Positions 2,566-43,623 are shown, counted from the stretch's first letter. The stretch is DNA of 64,000 nt from Blasia pusilla (GCA_050084515.1 CM114271.1:33976001-34040000); one strand, 5' to 3'. The notes: a model not told the origin generated them from the sequence alone. Program-made: numbers and translations.

Positions 2566-2567
2566 AG

Positions 2568-2579
2568 TGGTATCAGAGC
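2568..2579 (+). other. Primer binding site (initiator tRNA-Met)
   Basis: TGGTATCAGAGC lies 2 nt after the LTR end, the canonical plant tRNA-iMet PBS. Confidence 0.93.
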
Positions 2580-2714
2580 TAATCCTTGGTGAGCGAGAAC
2601 TTGGGGTCGTGGGATCAATCGGACGCTTGGGAAAACTCAAGGTAGCGGCTAGACTCAGACGCTCGAGGAGGGACGCAAGAAACGAGGAGGAGATCTGAGT
2701 GAGTTGGCTTGAAA

Positions 2715-5700
2715 ATGACGATCGAAGGGGAACAACCCAAGAAGCGCCGAATCAAGCGACGTGAACCAAGAGAGGAACCAATGCCATTAGATGAGCTCTT
2801 TGGGAGACTCCCGAAGAGCTGAACGCCAGTCGTGAGGACGTTCTAGAGGCGAATCCTTCCACGGGGCCATCGGGCCCAAACTCAGGGGAACGGACCGAGT
2901 CAGGCCAGGCGTTGGACTTGTTGAAGCTGTTGGTGGAGCAGATATCCCAGCAAAGCAAGCGGATTGCAGAGTTAGAGGCCACCCGAACTCCGGGTGCGGG
3001 CAAAAAGCTCTACAAGACAAACTTGCCCACGCCATTCACTGGGGTGGGGCGCTCGCGGAAAGTGAAGGATTTCCTTATGAAACTGGAACTGTACTTCGAG
3101 GCGCAGAGGGCAGTTGAGCAGGACAAGGTGACGATAGCCGTTACTTTCTTGAAGGATCATGCGTTACAATGGTGGACAACTCAATGAGAGGAATATCTGG
3201 TCGGCGAGTCACCTGTGAGTTGGGAGGAGTTCAAGGTGTTGATTGGGGATTGATTCACTCCGGAGTACCAAGGGTTGCGCGACACGGTGGAATGCGTGCG
3301 GATGCGGCAGAGTGGTTCCTTAAGCGCGTATGTGAGGGAGTTTAGTGCGAAACTGACTTCTCTTCCAAAGATGGATGAGCACGTGAAGAAGGCTATCTTC
3401 AATAGTAGACTCAAGCCGAGCGCTGAAAAGGCCATTTACCGAATGTCGACGTTTCCAGATACCTGCGCGGATCTTCTGAAGCTAGCGGAGCGGATTGGGG
3501 ACGATGAGGTCCAAACCCAGAAATCCTTTGAGCCAAAAGTTTTTTCGAAGAAGTCGAAAAATAAGGAGTTGTTCAAATGAGTCTGGAGTGGGGGCCAGCA
3601 CGATCCAGGAGAGTCATCTGCCCCGGCAGCAAAATGAGTGGAACTTCATGCAAAGCCGAGAGGAGGACAACACTCGAAGTCAGGGAACGGCAAAGGTCAT
3701 ATGCTACAACTGTGGCGAACTGGGGCACCTGGCAAAAGTGTGTTCGAAACCGAAGGTTAGTAATGGGAGTATGATTGCGTTTGTTGCTTAGCATCTGTTG
3801 GCGGGTGATCTCGAGACGTCCCTTCAGGTCACCAAGAGGACGCACAATTTGGTGTACCTAAGATCCAAGATTTCTGATCGCGATGTGTTGTTGCTTGTGG
3901 ATATAGGTGTTTTGCACTCCTTCCTAAGCCCGAGAATCGTGAAGGAACTGGGGTTGTCTACCTCTAAGGCGGATGAGCCCATTCGAGTAGGATTTGCAGG
4001 AGGCAAGTCTCATCGGACTTCTGAATTGGTCTTGGGTTTGACTGTAGGATGCGGGGTATTTGAGTTGAAGGAGAATTTCACTGTGTGTGAAATGGATGGC
4101 ATTGACGGAGTCTTGGGGAATACATTCCTAGATGCGTATGAGGTGGAGTTAAGACGTAGACCCTTGAGGTTGAGCGTCTTGCTAAAAGGCAAACGGTTAC
4201 AGGTGCGGTTGGTCCGTGAGGTTTTGGCGAAAAAGAAGTTAGTGAACTCAATTACAAGGAGGAGCATGACCGAGTTGGAGAATGGATTTCTCTGCTTGAT
4301 GAGACAAGTGGAGGAGGCTACAAGAAGAATACCCAGAGATCAGGACACTGCTTCAAGGGGAATCCTAGAACCACTCTAGGAAGTGGTCAAGGAGTTTGAG
4401 GATGTCTTGGCAAAGGAGCTTCCGACTGAATTGCCGCCACATAGAGCCGTCGATCATAAGATAGAGATCATACCTGGTTCCCAACCGCCTTCAAAAGCAC
4501 CATATAGGTTGAATCAGGAGGAACTTCTTGAGTTGAAAAGGCAGTTAAGTGAGCTCTTGGAAAAGGGTTACATTAGGACTAGCAAGTCACCTTATGGAGC
4601 ACTAGTTCTTTTTGTGAAGAAGAAGGATGGAAAGATGAGGCTATGTGTTGATTACCGTGCGTTGAATAAAGTGACGGTTCGAAACAATTATCCTCTTTCG
4701 AGGATAGATGATCTCTTGGATAGGCTGGTAGGCGCGAGATATTTCAGTAGGATTGACTTGAAGTCAGGATATTACCAGATCCGGATTGCCGAGGCAGATG
4801 TGGAGAAGACTATGTGTAGGACAAGATACAGTTCCTTTGAGTTTGTAGTGATGCTTTTCGGTCTATGTAACGCGCCTCCGACGTTCATCACATTGATGAA
4901 CTCCATTTTTCACAAGGAAATGGATGAGTATGTTATCATCTATATTGATGACATACTTATCTATTCGAAGTCACTAGAGGAGCACGTTCGACATGTGAGA
5001 GCGGTCTTGTCTAAGCTAAGGGCAAATCAACTGTATGCGAATGTAGAGAAGAGCGAATTTGGTTTGAGCAAGATCAAATTCTTGGGTCACGTGGTCAATG
5101 CAGATAGCGTCAGTCCAGACATGGAGAAGGTGAAAGCGATTGTCGAGTGGGAACCCCCATCCACTGTAAAGGGGATGAGGAGGTTCATAGGTGCGGTGCA
5201 ATTCTATCGCACTCATGTGAAAAACTTCTCGGGAATTGTGAGGCCTCTCACGGATTGGACAGCAAAGTTTGCCAATACGACTTGGACCCAGGAAGTTAAT
5301 GAGGCATTCAGCCGAGTGAAGCAGATTCTATCGCAGGAACCAGTATTGAAGCTGCCGGAGTTTGACAAACTGTTCGAAGTGCATACCGATGCTAATGATT
5401 TCACGGTTGCAGGAATGTTGGTGCAAGAAGGGAGACCGGTAGCATACGAGAGCAAGAAGCTGAGCGATACTGAACAGAGATGTCCCACTTGCTTGAGGAA
5501 GTGGCGGCATTATCTAGGGCTCCATAGGACTTGAGTATTCACCGATAATATATCACTAAAGTATTTTGAGACCCAGGATCGAGTGACACCGAAAAAATTG
5601 CGATGGCATGATACCTTGGCGTTGATGGATGTTGAGTTGATTCACAAGCCAGGTAAAGATAATGTGATTCCAGATGCGTTGAGTCGCAAGGAGGAACACA

Positions 5701-7187
5701 TGCCATCGACGACACAGGTCTTGAGAGCAATGTTCCCTAAAGAAATAGACCTGGAAAGAAGGATTCGTGAAGGATATATGAAGGATGCTATGACGGGAGT
5801 GTCGAGGAAGTTGAAGCGGGTGAGAAGGTGGCCAACATAAGTTTTGCTTTACTAAGGTTCAAGCAGAGTAGGATCTATGTAGGGCAAGGTAGGATCGAAC
5901 CAAAGTGTTAGAGAGTGTCCCAACCCTTGGCGGACATAAAGGAGAGAAATCTCGGCCCTGTCAAAGCGGTTCTTTTGGCCCAACATGAAAGAGGATGTTG
6001 CTCAATATGTGAAGACCTATGTGACCTCCCAAGCGAATAGAGTTTCTTATGATAAGAAACAAGGCTTTCTGCATCCCTTGCCGATCCCAAGAGGACCCTT
6101 GCAAAGTGTGAGTATGGATTTCATCACGAGTCTTCCGGAATCCTAGGGATACAACGCTATACTTGTGATTGTTGATCGGTTTAGCAAAATGGCGAGATTC
6201 GTGCCGACGGTGGATTCCGCGATGGCTTATACGACGTCGCAATTGTTTCTCGATAGCTGGTGGCGTGCTCACGGTTTGCCAAGGAGCATTGTTTCAGATC
6301 AGGATCCAAGGTTTACTAGTGCTTTCTGGAAGCACTTGTTCAGGAGGTTTAAGACCAAGCTGAGTTTCAGTACGGCTTTCCACCCACAGTCGGATGGACA
6401 GACTGAAAAGTTAAACTCAATCATGAATCAATACTTAAGGAATTATATCAGTGCTGATCAACGAGATTGGGTCAAGTGGCTGAGCATGGCGGACTACTAC
6501 TACAACTCGACCAAGCATTGTGCAACTGAAGAATCTCCGTTTCTCTTGGCAAATGGACGAGAGCCAGAAGGGCCTCTTGATCTAGCCCTTTCGAAGGGTA
6601 CTACATCGGCACAAAGACAACAAGCGACGGCAGAAGGTTTGTTGGTAGAAATGCGAGAACGGGAAGAGCGAGCAAGGCGAAGTCTTACAAAGGCTCAAAT
6701 GAGGTACGTTAAGCATGCTAACAAGAGTCGGTGCCAAGTACGATTCCAAGTTGGAGAGCAAGTGTGGTTGAGTGTGAAGAATCTCACTCTTCCGAAAGAG
6801 TTTTCTGCAAAGCTGTTTGCCAAGTATGGTGGATCCTATGTGATTGTGGCAAACCCGTTTGAGGATGTGTATACATTGGGGCTGCCGGACCAGTTCAAGA
6901 TTCACCCGACCTTTCATGTGTCATTTTTGAAGAAATATCTTCAAGATAATGGACGTTTCGAGCGGAGACAGGTGGTGAGACCGCACCCGGTGATCATAAA
7001 GGAAGAGCCAGAGTTTGAGGTGAAGACCATCTTACGTTCGAGGCGTCGGGCCAACAAGTATGAATACTTGGTTAAATGGAAGGGCTACCATGTGAAGGAG
7101 GCGACTTGGATTGCGGAGGCGGATTTGGAACACACGCAAGAGTTGTTGCAAGACTTTAAGCGAATGCAAGCGAGGCACATACGTTAG
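2715..7187 (+). pseudogene. gag-pol polyprotein (Gag, zinc knuckle, aspartic protease, RT, RNase H, integrase, chromodomain) with stops and frameshifts
   Basis: CYNCGELGHLAKVC knuckle; degenerate protease site LLVDIG; RLCVDYRALN and YIDDILIYS (RT); FEVHTDA (RNase H); IVSDQDPRF...HPQSDGQTEK (integrase); FEVKTIL...YLVKWKGY...ATW (chromodomain). Confidence 0.95.
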
Positions 7188-7859
7188 TAAGAGGAGAAGC
7201 TAGAGACACGACTTGTAACCATTGGAATCTTGGGCCGAAGGCCGTTGTAACTAGAATATACTAGTGTTGCAATAAAGGAGTGTATGGATTTGGAGATTCG
7301 ATACCAGAGTTGATTGCAATTTGTATGTTGTAGTGCATGGCTATGAGTCGTTCATCATAGGCTTAGGATGTAAAGAGGACATACAAGGAGTATTTGAGGT
7401 GAGAGCTCGTATGTGGATAAGCACCTAGAATAGGACCTTGTGTTGGATTACACTCGGGCTCGCCCTAGCGTCGGCGGGGCAGATGATGTCTGTCTGGGGC
7501 TTGGGGTGATCTTACTTGTGGCTACATAAGTAAACTTAGTGACGCGCCTAAGTAGAATACGAGAGCGACCCAATAGTAGTACGATTTGTAGACCACGTAA
7601 ACAGGTGTGATGTTTATAGGAATGAGCCAGAAGAGTCTAAGGTTGCACACTTAGTTAGCTTATTTGATAGGTTAGTTCTTTGGAAACAGTTCAGGCTTAT
7701 CAAAGAGGAGAGGCTAATAATTCTAAGTGGGACAAAGCGACAACTATAGACTAAGAGGAATTGCGGGTTAGCCACCAGAACGCAATTCAATGTCAAGGGG
7801 TAGGTTGCCCGGGAGACTTGACATAACAAAGGTTTGCGTTGATGAGGGCATCAACCTCT

Positions 7860-7872
7860 AAAGAGGGGTGAG
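7860..7872 (+). other. Polypurine tract
   Basis: AAAGAGGGGTGAG directly precedes the 3' LTR start TGTCGCG at 7873. Confidence 0.85.
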
Positions 7873-8455
7873 TGTCGCGATCCTCATGACCAAACGAATG
7901 CCAAGCGGAACATCGGAACATTAGCGGGCTCACGCTAAGATGGTTTGCGCGTTGGAGTAGTCTCGAAGAAGAGACAAGAGATGAGACGCAAGAGAGGCTT
8001 CACATTTCAGATGTTGTGGTCGCGACCAAGAAACCTGGACCAAACGAGGAATAAGACTTGAAAGGAGTTGAGTCTAGAAAGTGGGTTGCCAAAAGGAAGA
8101 ATCCGGATTTGGAACGCCACTAGCGTTTGAGAGTTTCCGATTGTATTTATAACCATAACTTTTAGCTCCAAGATGCGTTTGGATTAAAAAAAGGTGCTTT
8201 GGAAGGCTTATGGAAAGCCAGTTCAAACGCACTAAAGATCTCTGCAAACGCATAAGCAGCAGCTGAGAAACTACCCGGAAACGACTGTAAGTGGAGTCGG
8301 GTTGAGGGCCACAATGAAGGGCCCGACCCTCCTTTTCCAAAGGGGGAGGGGGGCCCAGAAGTACTAGTAAGGGGGAAGGTCTCCGAGAGTGCTCGAAACT
8401 CGAACCCCACTTTGGGCGCCACGGGGCGGCTCAAGGGCATGAAACGGAACGCAAG
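7873..8455 (+). repeat. 3' LTR, left part (before the MULE insertion)
   Basis: Colinear with 1564-2153 up to ...GGAACGCAAG. Confidence 0.93.
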
Positions 8456-9119
8456 TTTTTTTTTTTGGGGGGATTGGTATTCCAGCGGGAGAGAGGAAGA
8501 GAGGAGAGTCTCTCTTAAGAAAAAAGGGCCAAATCCGCCTCCTCTCTTCAAAACTTTTTGACATATTTGAAATTTTTGTTTGCTTTCAAATTCATGAAAT
8601 CTTTAGAAGAGAATAGATAGTGGTTCACATTTGGCCCTAAAGAAACCTCCTTTTTCTAGGGGGCGAAAAAAAAGTAGACATCATAAGACCACTACAAAAT
8701 TTTTCCGCCACTCTCCATGTGAGCCTAAGTTTCTTAACATGACGTGTCTCGGTCTACAAAAAACAGTGCCCATGGGTATTTTTGTTGGAGGACCACCCGG
8801 ATGCCAACCTCTCTTTTTGCAGGAACTGCATCATGGCCTCTCTGAATTGCCCCATAACCAACTTTCTCGTTGGTTATGAATTGCTCAAGACCAACTTTGT
8901 GAAATGTGAACACATGAGAGGATAATTGAACCAAAAGATTGTTAGTCGTCTGGAGTAAAGAGGAACTGATGTCCCTTCATTGGATCCTAAAGCCGAGAAC
9001 CGAGAATCGCACCCTCCCAACCCGTAGAAAGAAAGCTCACCATAAGAAAGGAAAGATTTTTACAAGTGATTTTCTTCCACCCTCGCACCCACGACAATCT
9101 AATAGGTTGGGAATCCAAA

Positions 9120-9640
9120 ATGGAAACCGGGTAGTAGGAATCTGCACATCTTAGACAAGAAAAGAAGCCTACAATGCTGGTTTGACGAATGTAGGGAACG
9201 ACAAAAGTTAAGAAGCCCGCCACAATGCGTCTGTTGGTCTCACACGGAAAGAGTCCGATCACTCAAGCGATCAGGTCGAATCCGACAACTTGCTTGGAAA
9301 TGGTTAAAACGTTGAAGTGGGCAAAAAGCTCAAAGTTGCAACCCGTCAGAATCATATGGGTTGCAAAATTGTAATTCTGAGTAGCTAAAATAACACAATG
9401 CACTAGTCCCAAAAAACTTTCCAACAAACTTTTACAAACACCATTGTCGGTTGAAAAAATCTCGACCTTTATTACCTCCGAAGGAACCTCGGAAATGTAC
9501 ATTTGACCTAGTCTATGATTTCTTCAGCCTCGTCATCTACAAATTTACTCCTAACTCTCCTCGATGACAGTACAAAAGGAATGTCCTGGGATACAAATGG
9601 CTCCTCTAGCCGATTGTAGACGGGATCGTCGAGAGTGGTA
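9120..9640 (-). pseudogene. Diverged second copy of the C-terminus and 3' flank of the MULE methyltransferase gene
   Basis: HTTLDD...SKFVDDEAEEIID* (stop 9508-9510) parallels HTTLH...ELFDDEAKDFIT* (stop 11660-11662). 9120-9507 aligns by eye to 11298-11659. Confidence 0.7.
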
Positions 9641-11254
9641 TGTCTCACCGGGTAATACATGGCAAAGACACAACCCAGGTGAAAGCGTTGCTACCAAGTT
9701 CGGTCCCATGTAAGAGCTTAGGGCGGATCGAAGATCAGATCTGCAAGATATACTCCTTAATTTGTAAACCCCACCTCTTTACCTTAAGAGGTGGGGGAAC
9801 TCTCTCCACTTCAGTATCACAATCCTATCCTCATCCTACTAACCAAAACTCCTTCCTTTCTCTTGAGTGCTTTGAGTGGAGTGGCAGTGGAACCCAACAA
9901 GCACACTCTACTTAGAAACCCAAGGATGACCACGGCATAAGGTCCTCTGCCTTGGACTAGTTGAATGTACCAAGGCATCCTCTAAAGTACACCCGACTCC
10001 TAACCGATCAGGTAGTGCAATCACCTTCTTCTTCTCCTCGACCTTGCTGATGGTTGTTCTCCCTTCTTGTTCGGGTAGTAGGAGACTTAACAGGCTGAGG
10101 CCAACATACAGGGGAGCTCAAGCATGACCCTCTCTCTCTCCACTCACTAACTCTTATCACTTACAGACACTGGAAGTCCAAGTTGTCACACCTTGGAAGT
10201 AATCATGTGATTGGTGTCAAAGGCCAAGCTTAGGTGGGCGAACAAAGCTTTCAAGCTTTCCAAGCACACCTTGGTGGAGCACAATCTTGGAACCCAAGCT
10301 TGCCTCCCCTCACTTTGGTAGATCCTCTTGTCCTCTCCCTGCACTTTTGAATGATTAGTTGAATCATCTCCAAGAATCTCCCTTCATCAAGCCCTCCCCA
10401 ACTCATCACTCAATCATGCACATACTCGGATACAAGGCAATGGTGTGAACTCATTTCACTGGCTACCTCCCGTGTATCACAAAATCATAGAGTACATGAG
10501 AGACCTTCTTAGTCTCACCCCCCTTCAAGCACACTACACACTACCTAGACTTGGGAGCACAAAACTTTGGTTAGCTTGGCTCAAGAGATCGGTGTCTACT
10601 AGCCAACAACATGTATATGCCCCTTCAAGCAAACCCACCTGAGTATTTATAAGTGAAGTTGAGAGCCCTCTTCTTCCTTGAGCTTCTCTGGTATTCTGGG
10701 TTCCTACCTTCCTAAAAATCTACCTCCCCTAAGCATCTACTCCAAGGCATCTATGCCTGAAATTTCGACCTCATCTACTTGAACCTGTTCTCACTAGCAT
10801 TTCCCAAGCTTGCTTCTTCTCAAGCTGGTTCGAGATTCCTTGGTGCTCCTCACCTGATCTCACCTGATCTCCGCTGCTCCTCGGCTGATAATTACTTCCC
10901 GCTTCCTCACCGATCTCACCTGATCTCCAAAAAATCATTACTTGATCTCCTCGGCTGATAATTACTTCCTCGCTGCTCCTCACCGATCTCCTCAGCTGAT
11001 AATTACTTCCCTGCTGCTCCTCACCTGATCTCACCTGAGTCATGCACCGCTCCTCACCTGATCTCACCCGATCTCACCGATCTCCTCGGTGATAATTACT
11101 TCCCTGCTGCTCCTCACCGATCTCACGTGATCTCCTCACCGGCTGATAATTACTTCCCCCGCTGCTCCTCACCAGACGCCATAATGGTCTCATGTAACCT
11201 GATTTGAGTCCCACCGCTTCTCGGCAATATACCTTGTACGCCCGCAATGTGACA
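9641..11254. mobile_element. Putative solo LTR (~1.6 kb) inside the MULE
   Basis: TGTC...GACA termini, TATA-like TATTTATAAG near 10645, no long ORF. MULE homology stops at 9640 and is visible again by ~11298. No matching TSD. Confidence 0.5.
10845..11172. repeat. Degenerate tandem repeat (CTCCTCACCTGATCTCACC and GCTGATAATTACTTCC modules)
   Basis: About five copies of TGATAATTACTTCC interleaved with CTCACC(T/C)GATCT units. Confidence 0.8.
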
Positions 11255-12353
11255 CCCATCCAAGATCAATACGTGCTCCGCCCTTGGTAATACCATTATG
11301 GAAATCGGACGGGTAGTAGGAATCCAACACGTCTAAGAGAAGAAAAGAAGTCCGCCGCCTTTACGAGTTGAGGGAAGGTGCCAAGGGAAAAATGCCTCTT
11401 AAGTTGGACCAACAGGGAAAGAGTCCGATCAGCAAAGAAGAATCCGACAGGTTGCCGAAAGTGGTAAAAAGGTGTTTGTCGTCAAAAAGTGAAAAGTTGC
11501 AAGCGGGAGAAATCGGACGGGTTGCAAAATAGAAGTCCCTGGAGTACCGATCACATTCAAAAGACATAAAAATTTGAGCAAACTTTTACAAGCACCACCA
11601 TCGTTGAAAAATCATCTCCTTTATATCATCCGAACAAAGCTCGGAACTATACATTTGATCTATGTTATGAAATCTTTTGCCTCATCATCAAATAACTCCC
11701 TACTCCAAACGCTCTAGTCTTGCTGGGTCTTGAGTTCTTTGAACTCACTCGTCATCGTCCTCGAGAGCTCTTGCAAAATTACTTTTGGCCTTGCCCTCCC
11801 GATTTTGGAATCGTTGGAAGTGACGATGGAGTCACTACCAATGGTGGGTGAGGAACCGAGCTCTCGGCCGTGGAGAGTTGTATGCCCCAACGAGCCCTTC
11901 GATTCTCGCCTTTGCCTCCTTGCAAAATTCTGCCTTCCTCGAGGCAAAGAATGTTCCCGCCAGGGACGCTTTGATACTTGCCCCTGAAAGTCCCACTAAG
12001 TCGAACACCAAGTCACCCGGCCTTGAGCAGAGCTCGATGAGCGTTTTCATTAGGGCTGGCGACTTTTCCCTTCCTCCCAGAAGTGGGGTACCGTCTTGCA
12101 TGTAAATTCCCGGGGTGGAATTGTACAAACTATCTAAGCTGTACCCATCTGAGCATGGATCCACAAGATCCTGGATCTTGAACACCTGGAAATTGTGCTC
12201 GGGCCGAACGAAGCAATAAACGTAGGAGTGGTCCATCTGTAAAGAAGCACGTTGGAACCAATGTCAGCAACTTGGCATAATGTGCAACACGTCACCAAAG
12301 AACTCGTCTTGACCCTAGATAACTTTTTTTCAATTACTAACTTTGGATCAATG

Positions 12354-12616
12354 CCGGAGTCCGGCGGGTTGTTTTGTCCTCGACCAACCCGTCCGGAAGG
12401 CGACGGGTTTCGGCCTAGAGCGGCCCATGCTCGGCCGAGAGCAACTCGCTTTCGAAAACACAGGAAAAACCAAAAGCAATCGCAACCTGCCGGGTTCCGA
12501 CGGGGTTGATACACCACGGTTTTCCTGTGTTTCGAATGATGCAACCCGCTTCGGAAACCGACGGGTTGCTTTTAGCCGAGCATGGGCTGCCAACCCGTCG
12601 CCTTCCGACGGGTTGC
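12354..12616. repeat. Palindrome cluster A (~5 copies) in an intron of the MTase domain
   Basis: Example: GCAACCCGCTTCGGAAACCGACGGGTTGC at 12541. All copies lie inside intron 12315-12714. Confidence 0.85.
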
Positions 12617-14673
12617 TGAAAAACAACGGAGATATACTATCTGAAATTCAAACGCATTGAGCCTACCCAATTTGAAAATATATTTGAGATTTTACTACAG
12701 GAATTGAGCCTTACCCGATCGACTCGTCGCGGATCGGAGTGGGTACTCATTTTTTATGATCCACGATTGCGCCGTTTCCTCCACTTTAGCGACCTCTTGA
12801 CGCGCTTTGGAGGTTGAAGAGCTCGTCCTCGCTCCCTCGAATCAACACTAAGAAGCAGCCCGTGTCACTCGAGATAGGCCCGCAAAGGAGAACAATAGCG
12901 ATTTGGTCATAAGAGAGCGCACATTCGATCGGGTACTCCATCCGACGGATTCCGCAACCCCGAGGGGCAGATCAGCGATCAAGAGATCCACCGCATTCTC
13001 TTCGACCACTCCATTCATCATCCAGGCAGCGTGCCCGTTGCGTTGGAGCTTCCGTCCCAACGTTGTCAATTTATCAATGGCTGGTGTCGACGCTTGAGAT
13101 ATCAAGCTTTTCAGCTCATCCAGTAAAGGAGTGAACTGAAGGAGGATGCTTGTCCGGGTCGTTGTTTCTCTGTGTCTTCCCAAGGATGATGGACTGTATT
13201 TTCCTTGGGACAACACTGGCACCTGTTGCTTCCGCTTCTCCCGAGTCTGCGGACCGCTTGTCGGGGTCTCTATGACCTCATACTCTGGTGGGGTTTTTTT
13301 CGCCGAGGACCTAGTCCGTCCCTCTCTCCCTGCTCGCCCGGACGATTCCGCCTCTGGCCTCGAATCTTCAGCCTCTCTTTGGGAAGACTCGGCCTCGGAA
13401 TTTTTCCCTCCCCTCGCCTTGCCTTTGAGATCCGCTCTGGATTTGTCTTTGGTTGTGCGGACCTTGGAAGCCAACTCAGCTGTCTCGTGGGCTTGCTCTT
13501 CCGCATCTCCTCCGAAGAAGTCTTCAGGCTGCAAAACATTGGGGATGTCGTCTTGTCTTGAGGCCACTGCATCATGAAGCACTCGTAAATCCTTATCGAT
13601 GATGTCTTCAGGGTCGTTGAAGTCAAGCCAAATGGGGCAATTCTCCACCTCCCAATCGGACATGTGCTGCCCCATCTCCATGTCGTACATGGAGAATGTC
13701 TCTCCATCAGGCGGCAAAGCCCACAATTTCAAGGCTGCCGGTAATTTTCCCCAGGTACCTGCATTCTTACACTGGATGAGGTACCTTGAGACCATCCGTT
13801 GGGCAGATTTTACTCGAACTAAATCGGCCATCTGCTCCTGTAGATCTCGCTTCTTCTTTGCTTGATCCCGTTTGTTCCCCTCGATTTCTTCGTCAAGCTC
13901 GCATGAGGGAGGACGCAAACCTTGAACATTGTCTTGAATCTGGGTTTTTGATTGGCTTGTCCGGATGTCGCCGAGCCAAACTCAAATCTGAGAACTTTCC
14001 AGTTCATCCGAATGGGTTCTAATCTTTTGAGCTCGCTTGCGCACCGCCCAACACGGACTTCCCGATAACCCGCAACGCGCCCCTAACGACCATTCGCGAG
14101 CGGATCGACACACCGGAGGATGGTGTGCCACCCTCTTTGGGCCTCAGGCCTCGAGACTGATTTTCATCGGATCCTCATAAACTCGCTTATGCCGGACAAC
14201 GTAAACCGATGCACGCGATCCGGGGACACTTTCTCCCCAATCCGACCTTGCGGATCTTCATCCCTTTTCGGGCGCTTGATAATCGCCTTGCTCCTTGTAA
14301 AACTCCGGACCAAGTTCGGGGTTGAGAATGCTGATGTATCGCGCATCTTGCTCACCGTGTATTTCGTGGGTCTGCAGATAGTGGAGCTTGATGAATTTCG
14401 CGCGCGAGACTCGCTCGGTCAAAGACTCTTCTTCGCGACATGTATCTTCGACCAGCAAAGGATGGTTCGGCTCCATCTTGGGAAATAAACTTATTTGCCC
14501 AAGTTTTTTTTTTATCTCAGGCACCCTTTGCAAGCATCTGATTTACCAGGGCGTCGCCCAAGAACCGCTTGTACTCTCCCGGGTGCGTCGTAAGCACCTT
14601 CTTCACCCGATCGCAGTCCTGGATCCAATGGTGGGTGACATTCCCCTCCGATACAATCCTGCACATCCAAACT

Positions 14674-15419
14674 CAACCCGTCAGAAAATTTGTAAGTTAC
14701 ATGGGTTCCTGCAACCCGTCGGACTCCGACGGATCGTCTCAGCTCAAGGTCAGATTCTAGCAACGAGCTAAATGATGCAACCCGTCGGAGTCCGACGAAT
14801 TGCATTCACATTTGTGAATGCGTGGTTTCAACCCGTTGGACTCCGACGGATTGTCAGATAGTCCGTATCAAACGTGAACATAGCAACCCGTCGGAGTTCG
14901 ACAGGTTGCGCAATTGAATTGAAACTTGCAATTTGACGCGAAATTTGCTAAACCAACTTCCGAATGCAACCCGTCGGACTCGAGTTGATTTCGCCAAAAC
15001 GATTTGAGTCAAGCAACAGCCGGACTCGACGGGTTGCTTTGGGCCAAAACATACTAAACCTGTGGTCAGTCGAACAACTCGTCGGAGTCCGACGAGTTGC
15101 TTTCTTCAAAAAACATCCTGAAAAGGCGGCGAGTCCAGCAACCCGTCGGACTCCGACGGGTTGCTTTGGGCCAAAAACTTATTAAACCTCTGGTCACTCG
15201 AACAACTCGTCGGAGTCCGATGAGTTGCATTCTTCAAAAAATATCCTGAAAAGGTCGAGTCGAGCAACTTGTCGGAGTCCGACGAGTTGCTTTCGGCAAA
15301 AAATAACCTAACCCATTCATCAATCGAGCAACTCGTCGGAGTCCGACGAGTTGCATTTGGCCAAAAGCATCCCAACAATAGTGCCGACCCAAACTACTTG
15401 TCGGAGTCCGACGGTTTGC
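14674..15419. repeat. Palindrome cluster B (~13 copies, ~63-64 bp period in the right half) in an intron
   Basis: Perfect AGCAACCCGTCGGA-C-TCCGACGGGTTGCT at 15137-15165. Other copies at 14711, 14777, 14884, 15075, 15203, 15264 and 15328. Confidence 0.92.
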
Positions 15420-16693
15420 AGCAAGAAGATACTTACGTGTTCATGGCATGCATTGCCATCTCCACCGTCGCCATGTGATGAGGGAATGGATGAAGGACCA
15501 CTGCCTTCACGCAAAAATGTGCCTCCAAGGAGTTGGACCGCTCCTCTGCAAACTTGCTCCACGCCATGAACTCGTGATTTCCAGATGAAACTGATTCCTC
15601 ATCCGCTGAATTCTGTGCCCTCTACTTGCCTTCTGAAATCCTGGTCTCTCATCCTCCAGAATGTGTCGAGCTTATCCAAGTCCTCCTCCGTAACGAGGGC
15701 TTGGGTTCCATGCTTGTCGTAAGGCTGAACATAGAAGGGAGGAAAGCTGTCGCCGCCGATTGTTTAAGCTTCGCGATGTCCTTGTCGGACTGAATTTCGT
15801 GGACGTATTCCATTGTCCGCAATCGGCAGAGTGGAATCCTTGCGGCGTTGTGGCCCTCCATCAGTGCCATCTGCTTTACCACCTATCAGAACCGGGACAA
15901 GATCAATAGGCTACACTGAATTCCCAATGAATTGCAATTCACATAATTCAGAAAACCCAGATCCTCTCTTACCTGCTCGAAAATTGGGTCGGTTTCTTCA
16001 CCATCCAACTTGTCTGAGATAGTAGCTGGAAAATCGACTGGGAACTCATCGATCCGATAGAGGTCGATGTCTTCCACCGGTCTTGGAGACGAGAATGACC
16101 GCTCTCCGGCTTCTTCGGCAATGTCCACCATCTCCACGCTGGCGGTCGTCATCACCTCATCGTCCGTGATTTGAACTTCTGGCGTTTTCGCTATGTTGAT
16201 TGTGTCCCCGGACTTCATCGGGGACATTTCCTACAGCTCAACACTTTTGGTTGGATGGGCAGGGCTGTCGTAAATGGCTATTGCTTTTTCCCTCCTCGCT
16301 TTAGCCAATTCTGCTCTCCTCACCGACGCGTCTAGACGATTCTTTTCTCTCTTTTCGTCGGCGATCCTTTTCTTCAAGGCCTACGACGTCTCAGCCTCTG
16401 CGTTCTCTCTATCGAGCGACTCTTGAACACGTCTCGCAAGAAGCTCCTGGTTGTGCATCTCCGCTTCCCTTTCCCGCTCCTCGATTTCCTGCTCCCTAAT
16501 TTCATTTGCCGAACTAGGCCCTGGAGATGCTGACGCAGGAGTTCTAATGGACTTCGGAGTGAAGCTCCGAGACATGTTTGCTTGAGCTTTTTTCCTCGTC
16601 ATTTTTCCGGGAAATATCTCCACCTATGTCCACGATGAATCGCTTGATCAATCGCCTTGTTGATGTCGAGATGAGTTGCCTTGATGGGTAGCT

Positions 16694-16791
16694 CGAATCG
16701 TCTCGCGATCGTTCAGTCGAACCGTCTCCCTCTCGTTCGGTCGAACCGTCTCGCTCTCGTTCGGTCGAACCGTCTCGCTCTCGTTCCCTCG
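16694..16791. repeat. 24-bp tandem repeat (~4 copies) in the predicted 5' leader of the MTase gene
   Basis: Unit CGAACCGTCTCGCTCTCGTTCGGT. Confidence 0.85.
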
Positions 16792-16909
16792 TATCGACTC
16801 GCGATGACTCGCCGTGTGAAACGCCCCTTGGTATCCGATCAGCTGCTGCGCGGGAGAGAGAGGAATGGAGATCGCGAAATGAGAAACCGGAAATGAGCGA
16901 TTTCTGCCC

Positions 16910-16917
16910 TATTTATA
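16910..16917 (-). promoter_or_regulatory. TATA box of the ParB-like/MTase gene
   Basis: TATAAATA on the minus strand with CTCATTTC initiator-like motifs 20-35 nt downstream. Confidence 0.6.
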
Positions 16918-17007
16918 CTTTTCTAGCCGTTGGGCTGACCGTTGGGTCCCGTCGTCCTTTCGACGGCGACGTGCCGGCCGTTACGGAAGTCCGAACGTGA
17001 AAAATGG

Positions 17008-17753
17008 CAACTCGTCGGACTGCGGGTTGCGTGCCTCCGCCGTCCTGGGAAGATAACGCGAGGTGCGCGAGCAACCCGTCGCAGACCGACGGGTTGAGCG
17101 CCTCCGCCGTCTTCGGACAAGAACGCGAGGTACCTGCGCAACCCGTCGGAGACCGACAGGTTGCGCGCCTCCGCCATCTTCGGAGAAGAACGGGGCGTAC
17201 CCGTGCAACCCGTCGGAGACCGACATGTTGCGCGCCTCCGCGTCTTCGGACAAGAACGGGACGTACCCGCGCAATCCGTCAGAGACCGTTGGGTTGCACG
17301 CTTCCCTCGTCAAGGGTTAACAACGCGGGCTTCCCGCGCAACTCGTCGGAGTCCGAGAGGTTGTACGCTTCCTTCATGTAAGCGAAACAAGGCGAGGCCC
17401 TTGCGCAACGCGTCGGAGGGCGACACGTTGCAGGCCTCGCCGTCTTTAGGCAAATAGGTGCGGCACCCGCGGAACTCGTCGGGAACAGACGGTTTGCACG
17501 CTTCCTTCATGTAAGTGTTACACCATGAGATAATTGGGCAATCCGTCTGATGCCGACGGGTTGCAAGCCTCCGGCATCTTTGGGCAAGAAGGAGCGGTAT
17601 CCGAGCAACTTGTCGGAGAGCGACGGGTTCCCAGCTTCGACCATGTTTGCGTTTGAAGGTAAGGCAGAAGCGTGCAACCCGTCCTAAGCCAACGGGTTGC
17701 AGGCTTCGCTTAGCTTGGGTTAATTGTTGAGTTACCAGGACTCCGACGGGTTC
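17008..17753. repeat. Palindrome cluster C: ~12 copies at 66-67 bp period between the two divergent promoters
   Basis: Palindrome starts (GCAA(C/T), GGAAC at 17471) at 17071, 17138, 17205, 17271, 17338, 17405, 17471, 17538, 17605 and 17674. Confidence 0.93.
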
Positions 17754-17929
17754 CAACAAAATGAAGTATGCTTCGCAACCCACGTCTCTGCTTCCCAAAT
17801 CCCGGTAACACATTGCAACAGAATTGAATCTGTTGCAGCAGAATTGGATCCATTGTGTCAGACAATGTCACCTACTGAACTTCATCTTGACAATAAAAAT
17901 CTGTAAGGAGTATCTATTTTCCTATTCAC

Positions 17930-17936
17930 TATAAAT
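17930..17936 (+). promoter_or_regulatory. TATA box of the transposase gene
   Basis: TATAAAT followed by a pyrimidine-rich TCATT-repeat initiator region (17943-17980), then coding-like sequence. Confidence 0.55.
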
Positions 17937-17999
17937 TAAAAATTCTCATTCTCATTTTCATTTTCATTCTCACCCTCCTCCCGTACAAAATTTCTGGGA

Positions 18000-20900
18000 G
18001 TGGATAATTATGTGAAGTTCACTTGTGGCAGTCATCTAGCGGGCCTTCCTCAATCAGAAATCATTCGACCGCAAGCTCGTGAGTCTTTCATAGCAGTGGA
18101 TGAAAATTTTCTCTCTGTTGGATTTCTTCTCCAAATTGGAATCATCTTTGTATCCAAAGATGTTAGGGTGGACAGTACGGAAGATATAATAGGTGAGACA
18201 GTCCAGCCAGTGACTGCAGACCGTAAAGTATGGAATCTCCTACCTCAAGAAAATGGTCAATACAGAGTTTACGGCCTGCCCTTGAATTCGTCTGTTTCCC
18301 AAGTAGACGGTGGAGAATTCCCTAGTGCTCCGGCTCTACGTTTGCAACTCCTAGCTTAGTACATCCGGCTTCGACTCCAACTTCACACGCTCGTATCAAT
18401 TTTGTTCTTCCTAAAGAGATTCTGGATGTTATCAACCTCAGTGGATCTGTCGGACACCAACCGGGCCCTCTGTCCGCCTACTCGTTCCTCTTGCGAGTAT
18501 CAGGCAATAGTTTGCTTTCGTCTTTGGCCTTGAAAATGTTCAAGCACATTCTTGTCGACGAGCTGCCGCCCACGTACGATGGTAATTGCATTTTTGAGTT
18601 GCCTCCACTGGCTTTTTGACGCCTGAAGGGTATGGACAGAAAGTCTGATTGTCATCGATGGTGTAGGCTTCAACGGACTAGTGCTTCAATTCCAGATGGT
18701 CCTTGGATTGTATCCCGCCGCCAATGCATGGGAGCCTTGGAGTGTAGAAGTCTAGCATGCTCGTATCTGGAGCCCAACGGGCGAGTCGATACGTCGCAAT
18801 TCCCCCCCAAGAATGCAGAAACTCCATATGAGGTCGGTGCCACCATACCGCCGGGAGGCCATCGATGTCCTCATTGTCAGGCATCGCCCTTCTACGTTGG
18901 AGCGTGTCCTGCATACATATTTTTCATTGTCCACGACTTGGGCTCCACGTCAGAGTACACAAGAATGGCAGTTCATGTTGGCTCCTACACTCATCCTGTG
19001 ACCGATGCAATTCAAAGACACATCAAGGAGGATGTGGCGAATAAAAGTTGTCGAGGTCTCCGAAAACTCTCCGGGTTCAAAGCCCGGAGTGATCAAGATC
19101 ACAACGGCATCACAAATTTGTGAAGAATTGCTTGGAATCCCTGGACAGGGCAAGATCACGGCGGCTGAGGAGAAAAAACTCTGGATAAATCTCGCATTTC
19201 TCGCTGATCCTGAATGCTTCCGGAATTTGCTGCTTCAAATACGAGTTTTGGATGGAAAGACGGCCGAAATGGATGCCATCGCCAGAACTAAGGCCAACTC
19301 CAGATTTCCATTCATTCAGAGATGGCAGTTCATGGGCCAAGGAGGCGAGGGATCCAGGGCCTATGTCTTCAAAATGTCAACCACAGGTCCGTCGAGTGGC
19401 CTCGATCTTATAGATTGAATGAGGGAAGGGGAAGATCTTTACGGCAGCTGGGTAAGCTTTGATATTTGCTCTGAGTCTTTGAACGGATAGTTGACGATGG
19501 GTGCTCACGTTTATGACCATGTGGAGAAGGGACTCAAAACTATATTTGTGCGTGAAGTAAAGGCGTAAGACGTTGGCGGTTTGAAGATGTTTGGTTACTC
19601 TTATTGGAGGTGGTGAAGGAAAACAAAAGGCCACCTCCGGAAATTTATGGGTTCATGGCAGATAATGCACAACCTGGGTGGATTGCTATCCGGGAAGTGT
19701 TCTGGGGTGGAGAGGTTCAACCGGAGAGGGAAAGGTTGGATGCTTTCCATTGGCAATGATCTGTGACCGGTACACCAAATCTTGCATCAAGGAGGATAAG
19801 AGGACAGAGCATTCACTCTACTCCAACGCTGCAAGGACAGCAAAACCTTGAAGCAGGACATGGAATGCCAGGAAGAACTTCATGGGTGGTGGAGGAAGCA
19901 TGCGATTGAGGGGAAGGACAATGAGTTGTGCTCTTGGTTGAGTTGGTGGACTGTACGTATGAGATAATGGGGAAACTTCATGCGGCAGGTGAGTTCACTA
20001 TTTTGTCTTGTCAAGCTCACGCTAAGAATTGTTTGTAAAGTTGCAACTCAGGTTGAGAAGCCGACGAAAACCGACGAGTTGCCCGAGTGTGTAACCCGAC
20101 GGAAACCGACGGGTTGCATCCAGAATTTTGGTGCAACCCGAGTGTGCAACCCGACGGAAACCGACGTGTCGCAGAGTCGTTCATGGGATGCCTCGGCCTT
20201 GCAACCCGTTTGAATCTGAGGGGTTGCAGTAGGTGGGTTTAGGGTTGCAACACGTCATGACCCGACGGGTCGCAGAGTCGTTCATGGGATGCCTCGGGCT
20301 TGCAAACCGTCTGGTTCCGATAGGTAGCTTATGTCTTTGACTGCTGAGTTATCTTCGTTCCCTTCTAACATTGCTGTCGTTGCAAAGATTGAACGTTCAT
20401 GAAAATGCCCTCTTCCCCAACACAAGTGGAGCAGAAAGTGTTCATTCCTCCTGGAGGTTGTCATAAGCATGCCAACAAATTTCACTTGTGGAGGCATGCT
20501 AACAAGACCAGGCAAGAGCAATGCTACAGTCTGCAGCATCCCATATCTTCCTCACAAAAGGCATAACAAAAGGAAGGGGGTCGTGGATCTACGAGCTCTA
20601 TGTCAAGGCGGCTATGAGATTTGGTGATGAAAAAATGTATGTGGAAGCCTTCAACCGGTGCGTAGCTGGAACTCCCCTCGAGCAAGACGTACACATTGGT
20701 GGGGATATTCGTGGGCGGGTTTCAAGACGTCCCATACAAATGGTGGTAGAGCAGTCCGAGCGAGACTCGTGGAGACCAGATAAGTATCTTGACTTCAGGG
20801 AGGTGAAGAGGCAGCATCGAGGAACGAATCCGGTGATTGATTTGGATGAGGAAATTACGCCGCCCAGGTATTAGGGGACCCCGCACCCGTCCCAAATCCG

Positions 20901-21885
20901 TGATGGAGTTACTTATCCAAAATCAGTGAATTTTTTATTTCAAAATCCCTCCGTTCTTTGGAAGTTGAACATCCCCATCCGGGGTGGTTCAACAATATGG
21001 GATTCCGGTAATGGAGGTGGATTGCAACCTTAAACAGTGGCATATATCTCGGAGCAATCCACGACGTGGACCCACTGCAGGGCAGGATCTGATGGCATTA
21101 GGAGAGCATGCGACACTTTCCTAAATAAGAATTATACAAGGATTGGACGACCACTGCCTGGGTTTTGGGGACTCAAAACCTTTGATCGTTTCACTTGGAC
21201 CGGGGATCAATTGAAGTACTTCTTCTGCCCAAATGAATCTTTCGCTTTCCGGAAGTCTTATCCGGCTGCCATTGGAGCTCCGGGGAATATCCCCACGATT
21301 TGGCCCATCGCCGCAGGTACAAACTGCACTCAAGATGAAGTGGACAATCTTACAAGTGTCGGTTTGAGACTCGTAGACGGGGGAAGTTCGGGGCATGTTC
21401 TCATTACAGAGACCTTCGCATTTCGTATTCAACCCAAGATTGATGTCAACATGTTCTCCGAGAAGGTGGATGATCTCAATCCACTATTTCTGTTTGAGTC
21501 TAGAAATGGGGTGAAGAGAAACAGAATGTGTAGGCCAACGGTGGAGAGAGCAAAGCAAATTGCATCAGCTCAGGAGGCAAAAATGGAGATCATCGCCACA
21601 AAAGATGTCGTGTGTGGCAATGGAATAGGAAGGATGTATTGGGTCAGGAACAACACTGTAAATTCAAGTGTCACAAGGATGTATGTGGTGCACATCTGTT
21701 GCTTTCCCACATGTTCATGTGATGACTTTGTCCAAAGAGAGACAAGTGGCAAAAGGTATTTCCCTTGTAAGCACATGAACTATGTGTTGCTGGTAGTTTT
21801 AAGAGAGTCGGAGGTAGGAATAGGAATCCACCAACAAATTCTGTCCCTCAAAGAAGTGTGAAGTATTTTAAACAAACCACTTTGA
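18000..21885 (+). pseudogene. MULE-family transposase: GCM-like Zn domain, DDE core, SWIM finger; many stops and frameshifts
   Basis: QCMGALEC...C...CPHC...ACPA...HVGSYTHP (GCM-like). WVSFD (D, 19461), GFMADNA (D, 19661), DAFHW (CxxH position), WLSWW, NTSGAESVHSSW (E, 20434). CSC...CKH SWIM at 21712-21774. Intron ~19989-20387. Confidence 0.82.
20043..20329. repeat. Palindrome cluster D (~6 copies) in the transposase intron
   Basis: AACCCGACGGAAACCGACGGGTTGC near 20093 and GCAACCCGTTTGAATCTGAGGGGTTGC at 20201. Confidence 0.85.
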
Positions 21886-22309
21886 GGATGCAAAATGAGG
21901 TTTTAGATTGTACTTTTATTTTTCCTGAACCTTCATTTTGAGCTTGAACTCTATTCAGCCCGGGGCAAATGATAGATTTTTTCCAGACCTTGGATGGAAA
22001 AAGTGATTGGTTCCACACTTATGATTCCACTGATTTTTCAGTTTTCTAAATTTTGTGCAATTGGCAACTCTTCGGACTCAGAGGGGTTGCCAAAATATGG
22101 AAGAGGAAAAAAAACTATGGGACTGCTTAATATATGAACAAAAAAGTGCAAAAAAATTCAAAAAAAAAGTTTCCTCTCTTCAACCCAACGGAAACTCTCT
22201 TAAAAAAAATGTATCTATTTCGGTTGAAGGTAGTTTCCTCTCTCCTCTCTCCTCTCTTCCCCTCTCCTCTCTCCTCTCTTCCTCTCTTCCTCTCCTCTTA
22301 CCGCACCTC

Positions 22310-22722
22310 GTTTGGGGGTTGGGTTGGAAAACCTGCACCAAGTCTATTGACACGATTTTAGACATCCCTCTTGGATTTCACCCCGCGACTCAATTACTTG
22401 GGTCTCGGTTTGGAACTCACATAAGATCATTTGAACATTTGGGATCGCTAGGCGCGCAAGTGCCGTTTCAGATCCCTGGACTAACCAGGAAGTCTGTTCC
22501 AAGTCTTGAAGGACTTGCCATGTGTTGGAAACTAGGAAGTAAGGAAGGTTGAGCTTGATGAGACGCCGAGTTGAGAACTGGGTGGGTTGGAACGCTGGTT
22601 GGCCCGGACTCGACTAACGAGAGTGCGTGTTTGGGTGCAGATCGGCGATGAGATCTTGTCCTACTTAACGTACGCTTCCGCAACACTAAATATTGGCATT
22701 CAAAGAGAGTAGGGGCGCGACA
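22310..22722 (+). repeat. 3' LTR, right part (after the MULE insertion)
   Basis: Colinear with 2153-2565 and ends GGGGCGCGACA. Confidence 0.93.
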
Positions 22723-22757: not shown

Positions 22758-23462
22758 TGTCATGCGCATACACATCGCTACACAACATACATCGTTGTCA
22801 CCAAACACACACACAAACACGCACGATCCCATGCTAACTCATGGCATCCAAACAACGAGACAAGAAGTACCAAAATATCTCCAAAAACAGCGAATGACCA
22901 GCGAGCTCCCCCATGAAGCTCTCTCACTCTCTCATTCTCTCTTAGTAAAATAAGATCCAATATCTCTCACAACACCATAATTCTCACATGTGTGCACTCT
23001 CATATGTATCTCTCAATGTCAAACCAAACCCACTCTCCTAATGAGAGGCTTGGGTTACACACACAAGGCAAGCAAGACCATAGCTCCGCCACCTCATGCC
23101 AAGAGGTTCAACAAAGAGAGAATGAGCTCTCAAGCTCTCTCTCCTTGAGGTATACCCCTTCCCTCTCCCAATCTCTCTCCATGGTAACCTATGCTCCCAA
23201 TTCACCTCCTTGGCTCTTGACCTGATGTAGGAGGTGAAGGGCCACTTACCAAAAATAGAAAGTTGATCATATACTCAAAATGGTGCTTGCGTAAAATAGT
23301 AAGTTCCTCAATATGGCTCCAAATGAGCCGAAATGAAGGGGAAACCTGCTCTCTCAGGTTTCCCGTGGCCTCAAGAGTCATCTTCAACCTATTGAGCATG
23401 TCCTCCACTACTCACAAAGACACTCTACTAGATCTGACCGATCTATCCTTGAAGATGTGACA
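22758..23462 (-). mobile_element. Solo terminal repeat (705 bp) of the family of the DNMT/PHD Gypsy element
   Basis: TGTC...GACA with 4-bp TSD TAGT (22754-22757, 23463-23466). Its reverse complement matches 48222-48798 followed by 58378-58505. Confidence 0.9.
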
Positions 23463-24455: not shown

Positions 24456-25486
24456 TGTCGTGCGCCTACTCTCCTCGAACGTTAATCTTGTTTGTTGCGG
24501 AAGCGTGCGTTCAGTAGGTCATGCTCTCAACGCTGATCTGCATCCAAACACGCACTTTGGTTAGTCGGGTCTTGGATCAATCAGAGGGATTACTTTCCGA
24601 GTTCTCGTCTCGGACTCTCATCAAGCTCAACCTTCCTAGTTTCGCGGTTTACAACACGGGCAAATCTCGAAAGACTTGGGACAGACTTTCTGGTCGGTTC
24701 AGGAACCTGAAACGGCATTTCGCGCCTAGCGGTTCCAACTGTCCGATGGACATCCAATGAGTTTCTCATCCAAACTCGCACGAAGTGAATCTCGGGTTGG
24801 AATCCAAGTGTGGCGTACAAAGTCCACTCCCTTGGATCAGGTTTGGGTTTGGAGTTCCCACGCCAAACTCCCGTTCCATCTCGTGCCTCTGAAACGCCGT
24901 TTGGCGCCCAAAGTGGGAATTCGTTTCCCGAGACATCTCGGAGAGAGTCCTCCCTTAGTAGTTCTTCTGGGGATCTCCGGGGGCCCCCTACATTTAGGGA
25001 AAGACACCCGAGCCTCTCCAATTGGCCCTCAACCCGATTGCTCTCTCAATCATTTTCGGCCAATATCTCAGCCTGTACTTATGCGTTTTTTGAGATCTTT
25101 GGTGCATCGGAAGCGTCTTAAGATCAGCTTTCCAACGCGCCCTTACTTGTACCAAATGCATCTTGGAGCTCAACGTTATGGTCCTAAACACAGTCAGATT
25201 CTCCCAAACGCTAGTAGTGTTCCAAACTGGTTCTCACCTCTTTGGCAACCAACCTCCCAAGACTCAACTCATCTCAAGTCTTGGCTCGCGTTTGGTCTAG
25301 GTTTCCTGGTCGCGACCACTAACGCATGAAACGCATGACTCTGTTCCGCATTTCGTCTCTTAGACTTTTCCAAGAGACTTTTCCAAACGCCTCTCCAAAG
25401 CGCAAACCTCGCAACGTGAGTTCCTTTGAGTTCTGATGTTTCACTTGGCGCCTATTTGGTGTTGTTTGGTTATGAGGGTCACGACA
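24456..25486 (-). mobile_element. Solo LTR (~1.03 kb) of a relative of the chromovirus
   Basis: TGTCG...CGACA with 5-bp TSD CGCGG/CGTGG. Its reverse complement aligns by eye to 1564-2565. Confidence 0.88.

Positions 25487-41317: not shown

Positions 41318-43623
<2,306 letters not shown>

Follow-up and report, generated by a model that had tools for sequence, protein, structure and literature searches.

A decayed, multi-copy methyltransferase-like gene and its palindrome arrays in a large repeat unit of Blasia pusilla

A 64,000-nucleotide (nt) stretch of Blasia pusilla DNA (GCA_050084515.1 CM114271.1:33976001-34040000; hereafter the window), which is eukaryotic nuclear DNA, carries on its minus strand the remains of a large gene that extends from an ATG at 16602 to a stop codon at 11837-11835 and whose C-terminal part resembles prokaryote-type amino-methyltransferases. 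Our results make it probable that this locus is a pseudogenised copy of an accessory gene in a large repeat unit, most likely a DNA transposon, of the accessory-gene kind described in algae. A first-pass annotation, made from the sequence alone, had presented the locus as an intron-containing fusion of a ParB-like part with an N6-adenine/N4-cytosine methyltransferase and as a possible mobile reservoir of such enzymes in bryophytes. The methyltransferase likeness and the repeated nature of the gene are borne out below; an intact state and the ParB-like part are not. The value of the finding lies in the family, as this locus is just a dead copy.

The methyltransferase likeness was determined for the proposed last exon (11835-12307, minus strand), which encodes 142 amino acids (aa) and would represent the C-terminal half of the domain. 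A Pfam search with this exon yielded a match to PF01555 with an E value of 0.0045 (17.4 bits, profile positions 165-193 of 221), and no PF01555 match was obtained with the other gene pieces. The best phmmer match in the PDB was CcrM (6pbd, E 0.04), over its S-adenosylmethionine (SAM)-binding segment, which comprises motifs X-I. When the ESM Atlas was searched, the best score was 0.95, with 190 of 256 features in common; 28 of the 30 matches belonged to clusters with PF01555 as the sole common family, and the other two to PF01555 clusters with a minor second family. PHROGs 67, 6952 and 3008, all of them named 'DNA methyltransferase', were matched with E values of 4.7e-4 to 3e-3. Likewise, tblastn against 50,697 phage records returned 278 weak matches (best E 0.02), which lay under annotated methylase genes in 19 of the 20 best rows, the remaining record being unannotated, and in 35 of 40 spread rows.

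Profile comparisons gave a similar picture. The C-terminal piece ranked first among 169 six-frame pieces against three home-made methyltransferase profiles, and hhalign against eight phage methyltransferases reported a probability of 96.6% (E 5.6e-10, 79 columns), a value that is inflated because these methyltransferases were chosen via the same similarity. The third of the home-made profiles, for which the selection was less direct, comprised 14 phage methyltransferase proteins, taken from 80 viral loci and chosen for an N-terminal extension of ~180 aa, 12 of which have a Pfam ParB_N match; locus L032 was excluded because of a coordinate error. Its first-ranking match to the last exon had an E value of 2.7e-4. 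A homologue search with a phage methyltransferase as query yielded just close relatives (at least 69% identity) and barely raised profile diversity.

The independent weak matches converge on residues 66-103 of the last exon, where EKSPALMKTLIELCSRPGDLVFDLVGLSGAS aligns to the motif X-I segment (..KP..L....I...s.pGD.VlDPFxGSGTT) of CcrM, of the PHROGs and of the phage methyltransferase profiles. The corresponding string EKSPALMKTLIELCSRPGDLVFD is found at 12068-12000 on the minus strand and is followed at 12002-11982 by DLVGLSG, a degenerate form of the glycine-rich core of this segment. With several independent matches on the same residues, the likeness is above chance and supports homology between the C-terminal segment and the half of the beta-class PF01555 amino-methyltransferases that binds SAM. 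When 1.84 billion representative proteins were searched exhaustively by phmmer with the 142-aa exon, no true relative was obtained at E<=1e-3, which places the methyltransferase-like family at a great distance from all annotated proteins. The single match obtained in that search was a tandem-repeat protein and was judged spurious. It is very unlikely, in our estimation, that the likeness is convergent or fortuitous and that the protein had no methyltransferase fold: all single matches are sub-threshold, the exhaustive search gave no true relative and the structure models are unusable, yet five resources lead to the same family and the same residues, with (K/S)P..L....I...S.PGD.V.D...GSG....A as a colinear motif pattern.

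The N-terminal half of the domain is less clearly delineated. A 377-aa open reading frame (ORF) upstream of the C-terminal match, and colinear with it, ranked second of 169 against two of the three home-made profiles (E 0.16) and fifth against the third. Within it, the string DLLIADLPLG (12959-12988, minus strand), which reads DLPL instead of [DNS]PP[YFW], had been taken for the catalytic motif IV. One profile agrees with this assignment and aligns VEENAVDLLIADLPLGVAESVGW to lpdnsiDLiatDPPYfkvkscaW (0.1 bit, independent E value 0.017), and another aligns LGRKLQRNGHAAWMMNG to the RvLkpgGsl motif (5.2 bits), with DLLIADLPLG then lying later in the fold. The alternative candidate for motif IV reads TPLL, and the canonical [DNS]PP[YFW] is absent from this decayed copy under either alignment. 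The quoted strings exist in the claimed order, DLLIADLPLG (12988-12959) preceding EKS..LVFD (12068-12000), and the degeneracy of both motifs had been described correctly, while the identity of DLLIADLPLG as motif IV is supported by one profile and contradicted by the placement in the other. The permuted order, with the catalytic region N-terminal to the SAM-binding region, fits if either of the two marginal candidates is right. Reading the N-terminal half with two frame changes or in a single frame with two stops gave 33.2 and 38.1 bits, respectively, and 19.1 and 20.6 bits with a second profile. For the 377-aa ORF, AlphaFold modelling from the single sequence gave an unusable model, with a mean predicted local distance difference test (pLDDT) score of 47.0.

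The breaks in the ORF fall at four GT..AG interruptions, all with a GTAAR donor, and GT..AG introns in the methyltransferase-like gene are plausible on this ground. Summed exon lengths give a conceptual protein of ~1,140 aa. Proposed exon 1 (15973-16602, minus strand, as are all parts of the gene) starts with ATG 16602 and encodes a K/E/R-rich N-terminus for which no Pfam family was matched, the read-through translation included. It is followed by proposed intron 1 (15883-15972; 90 nt; GTAAGA..TAG), whose length is a multiple of three and which contains stops. Proposed exon 2 (15437-15882) corresponds to the part that had been called ParB-like (IPLCRLR.., ..SGNHEFMAW..). Proposed intron 2 (14659-15436; 778 nt; GTAAGT..CAG) keeps the frame and contains 11 palindromes in ~64-bp units, and the junction 15437/14658 predicted by the first-pass annotation is confirmed in that GT..AG is present and the frame preserved. 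Proposed exon 3 (14547-14658) reads ..IVSEGNVTHHWIQDCDRVKKVLTTHPGEYKRFLGDAL and is separated by proposed intron 3 (14477-14546; 70 nt; GTAAAT..AAG) from proposed exon 4 (12716-14476), in which a conserved block at 13301-13900 and a low-complexity, charged linker are found alongside the N-terminal half of the methyltransferase-like domain. Proposed intron 4 (~12308-12714) has its donor GTAAGG at 12714 and contains 3-4 palindromes. Here, in-frame joining requires the acceptor at 12309-12308 and not the one at 12316-12315: the predicted junction 12715/12314 misses the frame by one base, and 12715/12307 preserves it. The predicted TATA box, a TATAAAT heptamer at 16911-16917 (minus strand), is located 309 nt upstream of the ATG and is the sole TATA-like heptamer upstream on this strand; it is no better than chance, as TATAWAW occurs 18 times in the window, with 22.9 occurrences expected.

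The reading is interrupted by at least nine in-frame stop codons, namely TAG at 16383-16381 and 16233-16231 in exon 1, TGA at 15651-15649 and TAG at 15626-15624 in the straight frame of exon 2, stops at 14166-14164, 14085-14083, 12850-12848 and 12844-12842 in exon 4, and TGA at 12266-12264 in the last exon. Two of the stop pairs may alternatively be compensating frameshift pairs, near 15765/15610 and 12945/12795, and the alternative frame looks more protein-like at both sites. To these stops are added two deletions, which became apparent when one whole-genome DNA run with the same species label was mapped on 10001-19000. Two extra bases were present at 14289 in 96 of 99 DNA reads, and one extra base at 13900 in 68 of 69; both deletions are private to this copy, and the reads without them derive from other copies. 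This copy is a dead pseudogene, a state that the first-pass annotation had missed. With the deletions at 14289 and 13900 bridged, a single frame of 588 codons extends through exon 4 and is broken just by the four stops listed above, as compared to ~27 stops expected in 588 random codons (588 x 3/64). Exon 4 is therefore a former long ORF.

The same DNA reads show that the gene belongs to a repeated family, since nearly all of them come from other copies: 5390 of 5674 were 95-99% alike to the locus and 284 were at least 99% alike. The depth varied from ~7.5x at 11501-11800 to ~294x at 18401-18700, with ~165x over the last exon, ~149x at 15401-15700, 82-102x at 13301-13900 and ~10-13x at 12701-13300, where the candidate motif IV is located. 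The stretches that are best conserved among the copies (11801-12400, 13301-13900 and 15401-15700) are exon-like. Since the reads that are at least 99% alike account for a depth of ~5x, we estimate, very roughly, that there are at least 30 copies of the best-conserved exon. Directly downstream of the gene, tandem repeats with 41-70-bp units at 10873-11173 are also multi-copy in the DNA reads, and the combined depth on this side of the gene was ~22-57x over 10301-11200.

Transcription of the family is sparse. Three RNA runs with the same species label contained 19, 29 and 18 matching reads out of the ~10-12 million read per run. All but one of these 66 reads were 95-99% alike and are thus derived from other copies. 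In the three runs, 6 of 8, 9 of 9 and 6 of 7 of the RNA-covered bins within the gene contained only reads with the first mate on the plus strand, while first-mate-on-minus reads predominated from 17201 rightwards, over the side of a second, divergent gene. Given a library of the usual stranded type, these directions fit sense transcription of both divergent genes. RNA reads on the exons in the expected direction are also what a functional host gene would give, that is, a domesticated bacterial-type N4-cytosine or N6-adenine methyltransferase like DN4MT1 or N4CMT. For this locus, however, such a reading is close to refuted by the stop codons and the two private deletions, by the origin of 65 of the 66 RNA reads in other copies, and by the multi-copy state and the lack of an SPPY/DPPY motif.

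The locus might also be what remains of a large DNA virus that became endogenous, or of another viral element. Methyltransferases of this family are common in viruses, the large DNA viruses being rich in amino-methyltransferases, and the best tblastn matches of the last exon are phage genes. Against a viral relic stand the four GT..AG interruptions with GTAAR donors and a family with tens of copies at 95-99% identity; moreover, no viral hallmark was noticed among the window ORFs of at least 130 aa. Taken together, these observations leave a viral origin highly improbable.

The gene is part of a repeat unit with a minimum extent of 9338-22090 (at least 13 kb), as defined by the span of all copies of a 27-bp palindrome, GCAACCCGTCGGAnTCCGACGGGTTGC. 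This palindrome was found at 33 sites when up to seven mismatches were allowed and nowhere else in the window; no site was found in any of 30 shuffles. A stricter search with the 17-mer core identified 17 sites, as compared to 0.06 expected. Eleven palindromes are located in intron 2, 3-4 in intron 4, 10 between the two divergent genes, six within the span of the plus-strand gene and three singly in the flanks, and none of the 33 falls in a proposed exon of the methyltransferase-like gene. The 10 intergenic copies form an array at 17071-17700 with a spacing of ~67 bp.

The second gene of the unit (17940-21861, plus strand) appears to be multi-exon, shares its upstream region with the methyltransferase-like gene and ends in CSCDDF..CKH, a CxC..CxH string. 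It is known as ORF pieces, without an exon model, and its six palindromes (20056-20328) fall between these pieces. At 18401-19000, within this gene, the DNA depth reached ~290x. The gene could be a transposase that has escaped recognition; a single-sequence AlphaFold model of its 275-aa ORF was unusable (mean pLDDT 34.5). A D..H-containing stretch was noted at 19556-19759, and a TATAAAT heptamer lies beside the gene start at 17930-17936. A search of the two flanks for terminal inverted repeats gave just low-complexity GA/CT matches, no Rfam family was matched over 9000-22500, and neither the protein nor the palindrome pattern was matched in metagenome scans.

The palindromes differ in their centres. 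Of the 11 palindromes in intron 2 (14711-15419), 10 are centred on GANTC (GACTC/GAGTC), but just 1 of the 10 in the upstream array (17071-17700) is, most of the latter having GGAGACC in this place. The target of CcrM is GANTC. CcrM is also the top PDB match of the methyltransferase-like exon, and the presence of its target at the palindrome centres may be a coincidence, because an odd-centred GGAnTCC palindrome gives GANTC automatically.

The ParB-like part had been proposed from resemblances seen by eye (IPLCRL..DIAKLKQSI and ..SGNHEFMAW), and every statistical test of it was blank. Neither the gene pieces nor exon 2 with its stops read through matched Pfam ParB_N (PF02195) at E<=10. No ParB match was obtained in the PHROGs and NCBIfam searches, phmmer against the PDB with the proposed ParB part gave no match, and tblastn against the phages returned one unrelated match per query and no ParB. 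The best-conserved 62 aa of this part reached a top score of 0.82 in the ESM Atlas, in unnamed clusters (recognition 1275). Against the profile of 14 phage proteins, the frame-corrected read-through scored -2.2 bits, which is like shuffled sequence (773 of 1000 shuffles reportable, mean -2.0, standard deviation 1.1, maximum 4.3). The nucleotide-binding box of ParB proteins reads GxxR or GxHR, and the candidate box SGNHEFMAW has an E at the position of the expected R. ParB_N was also looked for in four phage records, and none was found there. True phage ParB-methyltransferase fusions reach just 21-36 bits on ParB_N, so that a diverged ParB domain is still conceivable, and the resemblance seen by eye is a lead at most.

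On the reading that we prefer, an intact copy of the gene would encode a protein of ~1,140 aa, in which a charged N-terminus would be followed by the middle part that had been called ParB-like, by a low-complexity linker and, at the C-terminus, by a beta-class amino-methyltransferase domain of the PF01555 type. The gene would be one of two divergent genes in the repeat unit of at least 13 kb, most likely a large DNA transposon, in which the palindromes occupy the non-coding parts: the proposed introns, the common upstream region and, in the second gene, the stretches that separate its ORF pieces. The intact protein would bind SAM and methylate adenine at N6 or cytosine at N4 in DNA, probably in the DNA of the element itself, and the palindrome arrays would be candidate docking sites. 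What the data show is the methyltransferase-like homology of the C-terminal half, the decay of this copy, the multi-copy state, the sparse RNA reads of the relatives in the direction of sense transcripts and the palindrome distribution; the transposon identity, the palindrome binding, the catalytic activity and the target base are deductions.

Several results weigh against this reading. Each methyltransferase match is below the curated or conventional threshold and spans ~35-80 residues (motifs X-I); the last exon, with its 17.4 bits, is below the PF01555 gathering score of 26.7 bits. The hhalign and home-made hidden Markov model results are partly circular, as the phage methyltransferases were picked via this exon. 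The alignments of the N-terminal half are marginal and mutually inconsistent, the catalytic and SAM motifs are both non-canonical here (DLPL, DLVGLSG), and conservation among the copies is lowest over the candidate motif IV (~10x, as compared to 165x for the last exon). The ParB-likeness failed all tests. No relatives were found outside Blasia pusilla by a word-based search with the 377-aa ORF, the exhaustive phmmer search or the metagenome scans. No splice joint reached the listing threshold in the three RNA runs, of each of which 6-12% was read. The divergent plus-strand gene, its 275-aa ORF included, matched neither a Pfam family nor a PDB entry nor any homologue, and the repeat unit yielded no recognisable transposase family, no terminal inverted repeats and no target-site duplication.

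The last of these results speaks for a rival view, on which the unit would be a non-autonomous element of the 'Pack' type, or a duplication of segmental or satellite-like nature, with a captured methyltransferase-like fragment that was already inactive, and the palindromes would be an unrelated hairpin repeat that spread into non-coding DNA. The poor conservation of the candidate motif IV region among the copies points in the same direction. In addition, RNA and DNA reads join the hairpin unit to unrelated sequence (loose ends at 15118, 15133-15164 and 14776), and cross-joints between the arrays are found (12617 to 15139). However, the best-conserved stretches are the exon-like ones, a former ORF of 588 codons has been preserved, and all 33 palindromes of the 64 kb lie inside this one unit. 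We therefore hold this explanation to be rather unlikely and favour a decayed accessory gene of a DNA transposon.

A bolder form of the preferred reading would be a giant transposon of the plant lineage with a 'write-on-self' module, in which the ~1,100-aa protein docks on the palindromes and marks the element with N6-methyladenine or N4-methylcytosine, possibly at GANTC. This we consider unlikely. If true, it would be the first 'write-on-self' system outside algae, with a DNA-binding part that has diverged from ParB beyond recognition and with palindrome arrays located within the introns of the gene itself and within a promoter region that it has in common with the partner gene. These arrays are a concrete candidate target and the most testable new feature of the locus.

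The remainder of the window contains retroelements and one clear host gene. A chromodomain Ty3/gypsy element at 1552-8458 (plus strand) has reverse transcriptase, RNase H, integrase and chromo domains and is bounded by long terminal repeats (LTRs; 1552-2156 and 7860-8458) that are 92% identical; fragments related to it are present at 22310-22722 and 24456-25305. A second retroelement at 50000-57600 (plus strand) has a reverse transcriptase at 54950-55528, an integrase zinc domain at 56115-56525 and a C-terminal PHD finger at 57076-57573 (Pfam E 6.5e-12). The ORF at 53519-54169 contains an 'ENVP' string that resembles motif IV of C5-methyltransferases and has no Pfam match. A repeat of ~0.5 kb occurs in three copies that are 87-96% identical (22882-23462, 48222-48798 and 57866-58377), two of which flank the retroelement at 50-57.5 kb in an LTR-like manner. 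The clearest ordinary host gene of the window is represented by a porphobilinogen deaminase exon at 42621-43121 (minus strand; Pfam Porphobil_deam, E 2.2e-48).

Bacterial-type amino-methyltransferases are rare in eukaryotes, and the few cases studied so far, among them rotifer N4CMT and Marchantia DN4MT1, altered the way in which DNA marks of eukaryotes are seen. According to their accessible texts, rotifer N4CMT (PMC8885841) and Marchantia MpDN4MT1a/b (bioRxiv 10.1101/2021.02.12.428880) are expressed host genes that occur in low copy number, have a motif of the TSPPY type and encode proteins of demonstrated activity. The gene described here resembles them, as far as those texts go, in having a putative bacterial-type permuted N6_N4 methyltransferase domain in an intron-bearing eukaryotic gene, and differs in being a decayed member of a multi-copy repeat without an SPPY motif. 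The kinship to N4CMT or DN4MT1 suggested by the first-pass annotation could not be demonstrated: no real relative emerged at E<=1e-3 from the exhaustive phmmer search, in a library in which the presence of these proteins is unconfirmed.

The alignment of the motif X-I segment links the gene to CcrM (6pbd) and to the phage fusions of ParB_N and N6_N4_Mtase domains (~400-440 aa; loci L016-L083), whose ParB part has no match to the protein here. The catalytic region would sit N-terminal to the SAM-binding region, as in PF01555 methyltransferases. Unlike the phage and prokaryotic members of PF01555, the protein is below all curated cut-offs, is about three times longer and is encoded with proposed introns, and this copy has DLPL for DPPY and DLVGLSG for DPFxGSG. 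An origin of eukaryotic methyltransferases from phage ParB-terminase loci has been described by Iyer et al., in the part of that article consulted here (PMC4738411).

Accessory genes that combine ParB and methyltransferase parts have already been published for transposons of brown, green and red algae, as stated in the available text of PMC12477816. According to that text, Sola1-1_Ec32 of Ectocarpus, a Sola1 element of 21.5 kb, encodes a 1104-aa ParB-like and DNA methyltransferase protein on the strand opposite the transposase, 'similar proteins' are cited for transposons of green and of red algae, and the Ectocarpus protein is proposed to bind and modify its own element (PMC12477816). The Blasia pusilla protein resembles it in its large size (~1,140 aa conceptual, as compared to 1104 aa) and in its C-terminal prokaryote-type amino-methyltransferase domain, and here, too, a long repeated element carries a second large gene on the other strand. 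This likeness is at the level of description. A ParB domain is undetectable here, and the gene on the opposite strand has no recognisable Sola or other transposase. The host is also not a brown alga, since a plant-type porphobilinogen deaminase exon and chromovirus elements are present.

A further parallel is provided by the Plavaka elements of Bostrychia moritziana, for which the accessible part of the preprint reports PAG2 (N6-adenine methyltransferase and SET), PAG3 (ParB and 2-oxoglutarate (2OG) oxygenase) and adjoining tandem inverted-repeat arrays, the latter being proposed as ParB docking sites (bioRxiv 10.1101/2025.02.11.637652). In both systems, to judge from that part, tandem inverted-repeat arrays adjoin an accessory gene of a giant element and the binding is putative; the domain combinations differ, and the arrays of Blasia pusilla lie in the proposed introns and in the common upstream region. 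No report of such a gene in mosses, liverworts or hornworts was found in the literature, subscription papers and supplements lying outside the search. This transposon-borne class, so far reported from algae, would be extended by such a family, which is present in many copies and weakly transcribed in a genome that has plant-type genes.

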